From assembly GCF_044647545.1 (NCBI RefSeq), contig NZ_CP172818.1: 64,000 bases of DNA; one strand, 5' to 3'. This DNA is from Escherichia coli. Its GTDB lineage: Bacteria > Pseudomonadota > Gammaproteobacteria > Enterobacterales > Enterobacteriaceae. The position numbers and the translations under genes are program-made. Shown in pieces: positions 17,924 through 20,900 of this stretch; the stretch's first letter is position 1, and every line of letters begins with the position of its first letter. A model generated the notes under the pieces. That model had not been told where the DNA came from and ran no database searches. It saw only the letters and a list, made by a program, of their open reading frames with translations.

Positions 17924-20900
17924 TCAGAACGACCAGTTCACACCAGCCACTGCGTTCCACGGGGATTCCACACCGGCACCATGGCTATACCCCACCCCGA
18001 GATGCCCGCTTAACGAACTGCTGAATGAGGCTTTAATACCTGCCTGGTATATTCCACGTCTGCCCGACAAATCATTGACAAAATTACCGTCATTATTCAC
18101 TTTCACCCGGTTATCATCGACAAATTCTTTGCGCACAGCCGCCTTCAGCCACGGCTCAACTTCCATGCCGTTCCCCAGACGCATGTTGTAACTCAGCGTT
18201 GCGCCCAGTTCACGATATATACTGCGGGTATCGACTGATTTCGATTCCATGCCATTGGATAAATGATATTCGGGGTTATCAGCGGTGAACCCCGTTAACG
18301 ATGCATACGGCGTCAGGTTCCAGTTACCATCGGTAAATCGCATCCCGGTTTCAATGTGACCACCCAGCCCGTTGCTGCGATAACTGCCGTTGGCGGCTCC
18401 ACCGCTGCTCATTTTACCGGCTACGTTACTTTCAAAGCGGTTCAGCTTCACGATACCGTCCAGATAGAAACCACTTTCATGTTCCCAGCTGGCATAGCCC
18501 CCCAGAGAATAACTGCCCACACTGCCATGTCCTCCACGATCAAAACCGATATGTGAATGGGAATAACCCATAAAAGCGCCCAGCGTCGCAATCCCCTCAG
18601 GAATATCATTACGGCTATCGATCCCCACCGTCATTCCGGTCAGCGTCTGCTCAAACCCGGCACCCGCATCGGTGGTGACATTATTACGGGTGTTATACGT
18701 CGTCCCCCAGACATTATTGTTGTGTGGACTCGCTTTCATTATGTTCAACCGCTCGCGAATACTGTTTAGCTCAGCATCAAAGACCAACGGTAATGTTGCT
18801 GCCATATTGAGTACGGCTGCCGTAGAAGGCGTGATGCGTTTCTCCGGGACGGGTGTCGGCGTTGGATCGGGAGTCGGGTCTGGTTTCGGATCCGGTTTTG
18901 GGTCTGGTTTTGGATCCGGCTTCGGATTTGGGTTGGGGTCCGGGTTGGGTTTGACATCATTGGTCAGGTTCCAGTTGCTGTTGCCGTCGCTTTTCAGGAC
19001 ATACTCATAGGTCCCAAGATCAACGAAACCGCCGGTATTACCCAGCGTAAACGAAGCATCCCCTCCCCCTGTTTTCACCAGCGTCATCGCGTCGTCAGAC
19101 TGAGGGCTGACGCCGGTATCCTGAACAAAGATTTTAAAATTACCAGTGGCGTTGTTGTTGACGACCAGTTGATCGCCCCGGGAGCCTGCAACGTTGGTAT
19201 GCAGGTAGAAATTACCGCTGCCGGAAAGTTCACTGGTTGTCAGCGTATTGTAGATACCGTTAGTTGTGGCAGGCGCTGCTGTTTGTGCTGATAAATAAAC
19301 ATCACCGTCGTTGAGGAGCAAACTGTTTACTCTATATTCGCAGTTGCTGGTACCTGCACAGGAATTATTGCTGTTAAGCCAGACACTGCCCCGGCTGGCA
19401 GCCGTCAGGTCGGTAAGCGTCGTATCGACGCCATTTCCGATAGTTAATGTCGCGCTATCGGTAATCCGGATCGCCCCTTCGAGTTTAACTGGCGTAACAT
19501 TATCCCGTGGCGTCATTAACGACAGGCTTCCTGTCGCGCCACTGACCGATGCATCCGCCAGCGTACCTGCATAGACGATTGCCGTCCCGCCAGCGACCTG
19601 GAGATCTTCTGCCCGGGCCAGAGCCTGAAACTCATCTTTTGACCGCCCAAGGGTATATTGCCCGCCAGAGTTAACCTTTGTGGCGGAGTCCTGACCCAGG
19701 TTTTGCATTGCACCACCCTTGCCAACCTTGGAGTCACGGGCTTCGGTACCTGCTAATACCAATAAATTACCGCCATTTTCCAGCAACATATTGGTCGCTA
19801 AATTGCCGGCAATGGAAAAGGTACCGTACTGGTGAGTACCGCTGATTTCAATACCGTTAGCCGTGCTCGTATGGAGAGCGGCACCGCTGTTCTGGATGAT
19901 ATCTGTCGCTTTGCCATTATCGTTGACTGTCAGCGTACCGCCTTCATTAATCGTTGTTTTTACTGCCTCACCGTTAGCCGAAACTGTTTGTATTCCGCCG
20001 TCGTTAATCGTTGTCTCATTCGCCACCCCCTCGACGATTTGTTCGCCGCCGGTGAGCGTCGTGCCTGTCGCAGTGGCTTTTGTTTTGACGATCTCCCGCC
20101 CGCCCGCATTGACCTGTGTTTTGGCGGAAGTGGTGTCTGACTCCACGGTTAACACGCCGCCATTTGCCAGCAGGATATTGTTCGCCGCACCCTGCTCGAT
20201 GCTGAACGCGACGCCATCAGCGCGTGTCCCTGTGACCCGCGTCGCTCTGGTGGTTGCAACCAACGCGCCCTGGCTACTTTGCTGTATCCCCGTTGCGCTG
20301 CCTTTCTCCCGCACATCGAGAGTGCCGCCGTCATTAAGCACCGAGTTTTCAGCCAGACCGCCCTCATTAACTACCTGTGAACCGCCATTAATAATGGAAC
20401 CTTCCGCTGTCCCGTTTACCATAATTTGTTGTAGGCCAGAGACGATATCGGTATTGATCGCCTTACCATAATTCTGAACGGTTTGCGTGCCGCCTTTGAT
20501 GTGCGTTTTATCTGTTGACCCACCATCAACAATTTGTTCACCACTTTCGATATTTGCCTCAGTGGCTAAACCATATACCGTTTGCTTGCCACCTTTGATA
20601 TTTGCTTTTTCAGAAGTGGCACTGGCATATATTGTTTGGGTACCCGCACTATTAAGTACAGTACCAACATCTTTTCCATAAACATCCATTTTGCCGTTGG
20701 CATTAATAATCGTGTCAACTGCCCGGGAACCAGTGACGACTGTTAATGAGCCAGCGTTTTCCAGCACTACATTTTTAGCTTCTGAATTCCTGATGTAGAA
20801 AGCATCACCATAACTGTTGGTTCCTTCGATAAGTGTTCCGGAGGTCGTGGAAGCAATTAATGCGCCGCCGGATTGTTGCTCAACATGCTTAGCCTCACCA

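Follow-up and report, generated by a model that had tools for sequence, protein, structure and literature searches.

Two questions are raised by a run of alternating prolines encoded in a 64,000-nucleotide stretch of Escherichia coli DNA (contig NZ_CP172818.1 of assembly GCF_044647545.1; below called the window), namely what such a run does in the protein that contains it, the autotransporter YpjA/EhaD, and whether the DNA repeat underneath changes in length between strains. A previous interpretation of the same DNA (the sequence-only reading) had described the region as a periodic repeat encoding the Pro-rich linker of the ypjA autotransporter. Considering the evidence given below, it is likely that the segment is a Pro-rich spacer of YpjA/EhaD between the beta-helical passenger and the helix that threads the barrel, that it undergoes in-frame insertions and deletions (indels) of the slippage type, and that it has the role of a stalk.

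The Pro-X linker of YpjA/EhaD

The peptide that the sequence-only reading had quoted for 18840-18960, leaving the strand unstated, was found exactly, at 18842-18949 on the minus strand. In translation it is an unbroken stretch of 36 residues, PNPDPNPNPKPDPKPDPKPDPKPDPTPDPTPTPVPE, with Pro at each second position, in the context ...NWNLTNDVK-PNPDPNPNPKPDPKPDPKPDPKPDPTPDPTPTPVPE-KRITPSTAAVLN... (more widely, ...SDGNSNWNLTNDVK-PNPDPNPNPKPDPKPDPKPDPKPDPTPDPTPTPVPE-KRITPSTAAVLNMAATLPLVFDAELNSIRERL...). At the protein level the run is clearly far above chance: 1000 shuffles of YpjA gave no Pro-X run longer than 6 residues, against the 36 observed, and the linker holds 18 of the 33 YpjA prolines within 2.4% of the protein length. 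A Pfam hit to Trypan_PARP, at 31 bits below the cut-off of 100, was judged compositional and rejected as homology.

The name of the gene was correctly given, as RefSeq labels the identical sequence 'ypjA: adhesin-like autotransporter YpjA/EhaD'. Over 801 nt (window 18500-19300) the identity is 100% to ypjA of FDAARGOS_497 and 95.7% to ypjA of K-12. The gene is an orthologue of K-12 ypjA (at the locus next to ssrA and CP4-57), to judge from this identity and from CP4-57 genes, yfjW and ypjF among them, that lie on the upstream side in the window, as they do in K-12. The enclosing open reading frame (ORF) comprises 1565 codons (17924..22621, minus strand); the start was placed at MNRTNLHY... (see Table 1), because the coding sequence of FDAARGOS_497 ypjA in RefSeq measures 4569 nt.

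YpjA/EhaD is a classical (type Va) autotransporter adhesin of the AIDA-I type. The beta-helical passenger contains AIDA repeats (PF16168, in ten stretches, E 1.6e-139) and ends in a Pertactin-type autochaperone domain (PF03212, query residues 1056-1178, E 5.2e-45; also recovered with phmmer), and a pore-spanning alpha-helix precedes the C-terminal 12-stranded beta-barrel translocator (PF03797, query residues 1262-1501, E 7.9e-46; the query starts at 22495 in both cases), as supported by Pfam, AlphaFold2 and Foldseek. In a phmmer search against solved structures the domain preceding the linker matched P.69 pertactin (1dab), IgA1 protease and Hap, aligning to residues 422-534 of pertactin, and the helix segment aligned with the stretches preceding the barrel in Vag8 and BrkA. 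Furthermore, Foldseek matched the N-terminal part of the modelled fragment to 1dab, and the barrel plus helix to the translocators of BrkA, EspP, Hbp and NalP with template-modelling scores of 0.8-0.9 (target-normalised) and to AIDA-I with 0.66. At the N-terminus, MNRTNLHYCRRSVLSLLISALIYAPPGMA shows by eye the order of charged, hydrophobic and small residues expected of a Sec signal, and a signal peptide of 29 amino acids (aa) has been given for YpjA (PMC13101318). The protein has been described as a biofilm-associated autotransporter and grouped with Ag43, AIDA-I and TibA (PMC9289746).

The location between passenger and beta-barrel, as proposed in the sequence-only reading, could be specified further. 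The linker starts 5 residues past the end of PF03212, and PF03797 starts 43 residues past the end of the linker. The C-terminal 491 residues of YpjA were modelled with AlphaFold2 on an alignment of 21 homologues (mean predicted local distance difference test score, pLDDT, 81.5; predicted template-modelling score 0.74). In the modelled fragment the beta strands extend to residue 146; a coil with a pLDDT under 50 (150-185), a helix (191-221) and the barrel (228-490) follow. The Pro-X run, residues 151-186, coincides with this coil, which is the sole long low-confidence coil of the fragment, and is without secondary structure. As modelled, the linker joins the Pertactin-type autochaperone domain to the pore-spanning helix.

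Length differences between alleles

The sequence-only reading had suggested comparing the length of the segment among ypjA alleles, with one identical length throughout as the outcome that would speak against it. From complete E. coli genomes, 14 alleles of the ypjA locus were taken and aligned with the window (15 alleles, 809 columns). The linkers measured 24, 32, 36, 38, 40 and 46 aa, so that this outcome did not occur. The window shares the length of 36 aa with alleles L006, L007 and L014. The length of 38 aa includes the K-12 type (L001, L005 and L008), an O157 type with a 6-bp deletion (L013) and a separate allele (L015). The 40-aa linkers (O157:H7, O145 and L009) equal the window type with CCCAACCCAAAT exactly duplicated. 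The remaining lengths can be described relative to the K-12 type, from which L003 (32 aa) lacks 18 bp and L012 (24 aa) lacks 42 bp between CCAAAGCCAGAC and CCAAAACCAGAC, and to which L011 (46 aa) adds the exact 24-bp duplication CCAAAGCCAGACCCAAAACCCGAT.

In the alignment, 88 gap columns fell within the linker and 0 outside it. Columns variable by substitution numbered 23 of 138 in the linker versus 56 of 671 outside. All aligned indels were multiples of 6 bp and in frame, some of them exact tandem duplications of 12 or 24 bp and others deletions flanked by short direct repeats, and all 14 genome alleles read in frame through the tract. Within the 801-nt segment of ypjA that was compared, the 108 bp of the linker form the sole indel hot spot.

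Several copies of the gene were found to be damaged. ypjA is truncated by IS3 in O145:H28 RM13514 (L004), frameshifted in L006, interrupted by an internal stop in L008 and without its N-terminus in L011. In E. coli O139:H1 W13-16 (L017, about 500-1070) the IS3-family element IS1203 lies inside the linker, and only PTPEPTPTPVPE remains before the helix. P0098, a database protein from a single assembly contig of 2963 nt, is 100% identical to the window YpjA up to PNPDPNPNPKPDPKPDPKP and then continues out of frame (Irnqtrlpiqrrh); either the tract is truly frameshifted or the repeat was misassembled.

Pace of change and the underlying DNA repeat

The 801-nt probe matched 2557 of 5426 complete E. 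coli genomes (~47%), some of the matches being a paralogue between minE and ymgJ (see below) and not ypjA. Allele frequencies were estimated from evenly spaced BLAST rows and from identity bands. Among 60 evenly spaced records of 2524, the linker measured 38 aa in 31, 36 aa in 19, 40 aa in 8, and 46 and 24 aa in one each. About 794 records were within 5% of the window allele (36-aa class) and at most 371 within 5% of the O157 allele (40-aa class), 269 of the latter matching the O157 allele over 193 nt with an identity of 99% or more. Records beyond these two bands were mostly of the K-12 type. In this way, the lengths of 38, 36 and 40 aa cover about 95% of the genomes. The sampled K-12 derivatives (MG1655 sublines, MC4100, BW25113, J53, RR1, S17-1 and EC600) showed one common span, and the O157:H7 records that were examined were uniform, with one derivative carrying a 6-bp deletion (L013). 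Linker change is slow, a lineage-level polymorphism rather than high-frequency switching, and we relate this rarity and the tracking of lineages to the degenerate codons of the window allele.

The reiterated short DNA unit described in the sequence-only reading is real. Tandem Repeats Finder reported a period of 24 at 18864-18919 (2.3 copies, 84% matches, score 77) and a period of 12 at 18874-18927 (4.5 copies, 78% matches). The repeat is degenerate nonetheless: the longest exact direct repeats in the window tract measure 11 nt (spacing 24) and three times 8 nt (spacings 12, 24 and 12). Nor does its periodicity exceed that given by the peptide, as a redraw of synonymous codons according to the gene's own usage reached the identity observed at lags 6 to 36 in 12-93% of cases. 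Recent homogenisation or gene conversion within the window tract was considered and dropped after this resampling. The suggestion that length changes by slippage holds for the footprint, as in-frame indels limited to the linker and exact tandem duplications are what slippage is expected to leave, but the change is slow and tracks lineages.

The same junction in homologues

The set of protein homologues consisted mostly of partial or shorter relatives and was used for the diversity of linkers across the family, not for allele counts. The motifs flanking the linker are kept in these relatives, with GTYEY..W.L before it and ITPSTAAVLNMA after it. Proteins of the E. albertii type carry an insert of 18-32 aa (PDPKPDPDPKP...). 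In Citrobacter, Salmonella, Klebsiella and Buttiauxella a Pro-rich insert of up to ~60 residues occurs, which is of other composition (PEPEPT, PVEPVE, PTPPDDGGDT and others). Judged from these sequences, the junction tolerates any linker length, and a Pro-rich insert nonetheless recurs there.

A paralogue with a near-perfect repeat

A search with an unusually long allele recovered a second gene that is named ypjA by RefSeq and sits between minE and ymgJ, a slot that we take to be the position of the K-12 pseudogene ycgI. Considering the genomic context, we rejected the long (PN)n alleles as alleles of ypjA itself; some genomes hold both the minE-ymgJ gene and ypjA at the ssrA locus. The paralogue resembles YpjA in its architecture, in the linker flanks NWNLTN..V. 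and PTPEPTPTPVPE-KRITPSTAAV, and in the presence of a 39-codon upstream ORF. It differs in its locus and in its tract, a near-perfect (Pro-Asn)n microsatellite built from the hexamers CCAAAT and CCGAAC, the length of which is far more variable. The five sequenced tracts measure 60, 76, 76, 78 and 80 aa, lengths of about 44-80 aa in the various strains can be deduced from BLAST spans, and two sub-tracts vary independently among porcine enterotoxigenic E. coli isolates of one collection. These changes are in frame, and the tract comes nearer than that of ypjA to the perfect repeat that characterizes contingency loci. The perfect repeat of the paralogue supports the same mechanism acting, more rarely, on the degenerate tract of the window.

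The upstream ORF in the window, MPHSYAEYHHFIMMSLMSGEHNTLALSLQDESPGLVPVG (22557-22676, minus strand), is separated from ypjA by 65 nt and carries the annotation 'hypothetical protein'. Its counterpart before the paralogue (L018, 9682-9801, minus strand) is identical in 35 of 39 residues. The ORF may be a leader or regulatory region that was duplicated, or else an artefact of annotation.

Comparison with known systems

The closest parallel is region 2 of pertactin (Bordetella P.69), with its (PQP)n repeat. In both proteins a Pro-rich tandem repeat follows the PF03212 domain at the C-terminal end of the passenger, and the pertactin crystal structure leaves it unresolved, and it is predicted to be unstructured in YpjA. 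In both, furthermore, the copy number differs between alleles, slowly rather than within an infection; for pertactin region 2 this slow variation between alleles has been used for typing (PMC8931430; PMC12243275). The YpjA linker shares the position and the variation of such an element, being a Pro-rich repeat between Pertactin domain and translocator that differs in length by whole units and in frame. The differences are that pertactin uses a PQP tripeptide and YpjA uses Pro-X dipeptides (PN/PD/PK/PT), without detectable homology within the repeat, that the pertactin passenger is cleaved from its barrel, and that the evidence on vaccines and immune selection is on the side of pertactin only.

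Like YpjA, the Agrobacterium autotransporter Aat has a proline-rich linker between a barrel/alpha-helix scaffold and a beta-solenoid passenger (bioRxiv 10.1101/2022.02.15.480547). The linkers of Aat and other type Va proteins are protein-specific in sequence and length, and the strict alternation of Pro with N/D/K/T is YpjA's own. The (Glu-Pro)n/(Lys-Pro)n rod of TonB also alternates Pro with charged partners, a likeness of composition only; TonB is an unrelated protein, and its rod is periplasmic and not on the surface. The Pro-X run of TonB is classically regarded as an extended spacer in an envelope protein. Full-text literature searches found no description of the ypjA linker polymorphism specifically, and a search on polyproline spacers in autotransporters gave no match. 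The polymorphism is an ordinary feature, such as would be expected of an element of this known kind.

Function and alternative explanations

The direct repeats of 8-11 nt may give rise to the indels, through slippage during replication or through unequal recombination, and such in-frame events would alter the length of the spacer only, never expression. The alternating prolines would hold the chain in an extended, polyproline-II-like conformation. A polyproline-II helix rises by about 0.31 nm per residue; on this assumption, a linker of 36 aa would span ~11 nm and the alleles of 24-46 aa ~7-14 nm. The spacer could thus serve as an unstructured stalk that keeps the adhesive passenger off the mouth of the barrel. 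Proline-rich linkers between a barrel/helix scaffold and a folded passenger have been proposed to be unfolded and to extend reach (bioRxiv 10.1101/2022.02.15.480547), and the role of a stalk-like spacer has been proposed for Pro-rich repeats in general (PMC8931430).

A number of observations weigh against a stalk that lengthens and shortens by slippage. YejO-type proteins possess both flanks with no insert between them, which shows that the secretion architecture can do without the spacer. The ypjA gene is a pseudogene in 4 of the 14 fetched alleles, which makes the case for strong selection on it weaker. Some of the differences between window-type and K-12-type alleles are complex and could reflect recombination of old alleles rather than simple slippage, and the DNA periodicity is only what the peptide dictates; slippage is therefore deduced from the footprints of the indels. 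The low AlphaFold2 confidence means 'no predicted fold' and is no proof of a polyproline-II rod. An effect of linker length on display, as the sequence-only reading had suggested, or on adhesion may exist but is hypothetical.

Part of this evidence would equally suit a neutral low-complexity filler, i.e. a Pro-X run that is a tolerated by-product of repeat expansion, has no role in display and varies neutrally in length. The missing insert of the YejO-type homologues, the free drift of insert composition and length in the others, a density of substitutions about twice that of the flanks and the frequent pseudogenisation of ypjA all agree with it. We nevertheless consider it rather unlikely, as a Pro-rich insert of unrelated sequence has been kept independently at the same junction in many homologues of Escherichia, Citrobacter, Salmonella, Klebsiella and Buttiauxella. 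This recurrence suggests that the extended character has been retained. In addition, a single in-tract change was out of frame (P0098), as against the frameshifts and stops elsewhere in the gene. The spacer might also serve antigenic variation, the role proposed for regions 1 and 2 of pertactin: a change in repeat number would alter an immunodominant surface epitope and permit escape from antibodies. The linker is located like region 2 after the PF03212 domain, the repeat number of the latter likewise varies slowly between alleles, and the tract shows amino-acid substitutions (D/N/A/E/I variants). Three length classes dominate thousands of genomes, however, and ypjA is regarded as a cryptic adhesin that is studied by forced expression; this possibility is therefore improbable. 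Improbable too is the idea that linker length is an adaptive 'reach' setting, in which the range of 24-46 aa tunes the projection of the passenger relative to O-antigen or capsule and the paralogue (~44-80 aa) changes faster; we regard it as a long shot.

A tandem repeat within the gene of a surface adhesin calls to mind a phase-variable contingency locus, where slippage would toggle ypjA between on and off at high frequency, and the out-of-frame tract of P0098, from a metagenome-type contig, would fit. This explanation is effectively refuted. The tract cannot turn ypjA off because its units (6, 12 and 24 bp) are multiples of three bases, and 14 of 14 fetched alleles are in frame across it; the repeats are imperfect (78-84% matches, exact repeats of at most 11 nt); and no variation was seen among the K-12 laboratory derivatives or the 269 O157-type records. 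Neither switching of expression nor a long perfect tract that varies within clones, the hallmarks of such loci, was found. Finally, the segment could have been a signal on the plus strand, where the mechanical ORF list contains a reading frame of 112 aa and the scan matched terminator-like hairpins at 18886-18907 and 18921-18944. The coding evidence refutes this: the minus strand holds a gene of 1522 aa with E-values down to 1e-139, and the ORF is the Gly-Ser/Phe mirror of Pro-X. The scan for promoters and terminators gave chance-level matches only, the two hairpins inside the repeat being by-products of it within a coding region. The Pro-rich spacer with a stalk role remains the reading that we prefer.

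Features and surroundings of the locus

The features of the gene and of its paralogue are collected in Table 1.

Table 1. Coordinates of features at the ypjA/ehaD locus (window positions) and of the minE-ymgJ paralogue (outside the window)
Feature	Position	Strand	Basis
ypjA/ehaD coding sequence, 1522 aa plus stop	17924..22492	-	ORF; Pfam; RefSeq coding sequence length
Putative signal peptide, 29 aa, MNRTNLHYCRRSVLSLLISALIYAPPGMA	22406..22492	-	read from sequence
Pertactin-type (PF03212) C-terminal passenger/autochaperone domain	18962..19330	-	Pfam, phmmer, Foldseek
(Pro-X)18 linker PNPDPNPNPKPDPKPDPKPDPKPDPTPDPTPTPVPE	18842..18949	-	translation; AlphaFold2; indel map
Core DNA tandem repeat, period 12/24 bp, encoding PKPD units	18864..18927		Tandem Repeats Finder
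Alpha-helical segment predicted through the barrel pore, TPSTAAVLNMAATLPLVFDAELNSIRERLNI	18737..18829	-	AlphaFold2 helix 191-221
Beta-barrel translocator domain	17927..18718	-	PF03797; AlphaFold2 strands 228-490; Foldseek
Antisense ORF, 112 aa, Gly-Ser/Phe repeats, mirror artefact of Pro-X	18672..19010	+	mechanical ORF list
minE-ymgJ paralogue (ETEC4077)	L018 6183-9617		
minE-ymgJ paralogue (elppa4)	L019 6183-9569		
minE-ymgJ paralogue, further copies	L020-L022		

At window positions 1-17900 lies the right-hand portion of a prophage resembling CP4-57 (abpAB, rnlA, yfjW, lfgAB and yfjZ-ypjF), which is 98.6% identical to that of K-12-like strains. The linker allele of the window is of the 36-aa, non-K-12 type despite the K-12-like prophage alongside, and in FDAARGOS_497 the identical ypjA segment is found directly beside ssrA, without the prophage. 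This suggests that the ypjA locus is mosaic or recombinant.

Further observations concern RNA genes elsewhere in the window. At 25622-25697 (minus strand) ARAGORN predicted a tRNA-Met (anticodon CAT), where RefSeq gives tRNA-Ile for the corresponding gene; it is of the known ileY type, whose CAU anticodon decodes Ile once modified with lysidine. The interval 57653-58244 (minus strand) holds a cluster of four identical tRNA-Arg(ACG) genes and a tRNA-Ser(GCT) gene. Rfam matches included the small RNA MicA (54672-54743, plus strand, 83.9 bits) and naRNA4 (47997-48074, plus strand), the latter with 60.0 bits barely above the gathering score of 59.5.

Implications

The finding has little import beyond annotation, as YpjA is a named autotransporter of K-12, and Pro-rich spacers and polymorphism in repeat number are known from elsewhere. 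The linker is a possible typing marker, and it is also a spot where assemblers and aligners can err. YpjA has already been used as a display scaffold (PMC13101318), and for surface-display scaffolds of the YpjA family the alleles and relatives offer a natural series of spacers from 0 to about 80 residues. If linker length were indeed a setting for reach, it would co-vary with the type of surface polysaccharide, and the tract of the paralogue would be a fast-evolving length rheostat.

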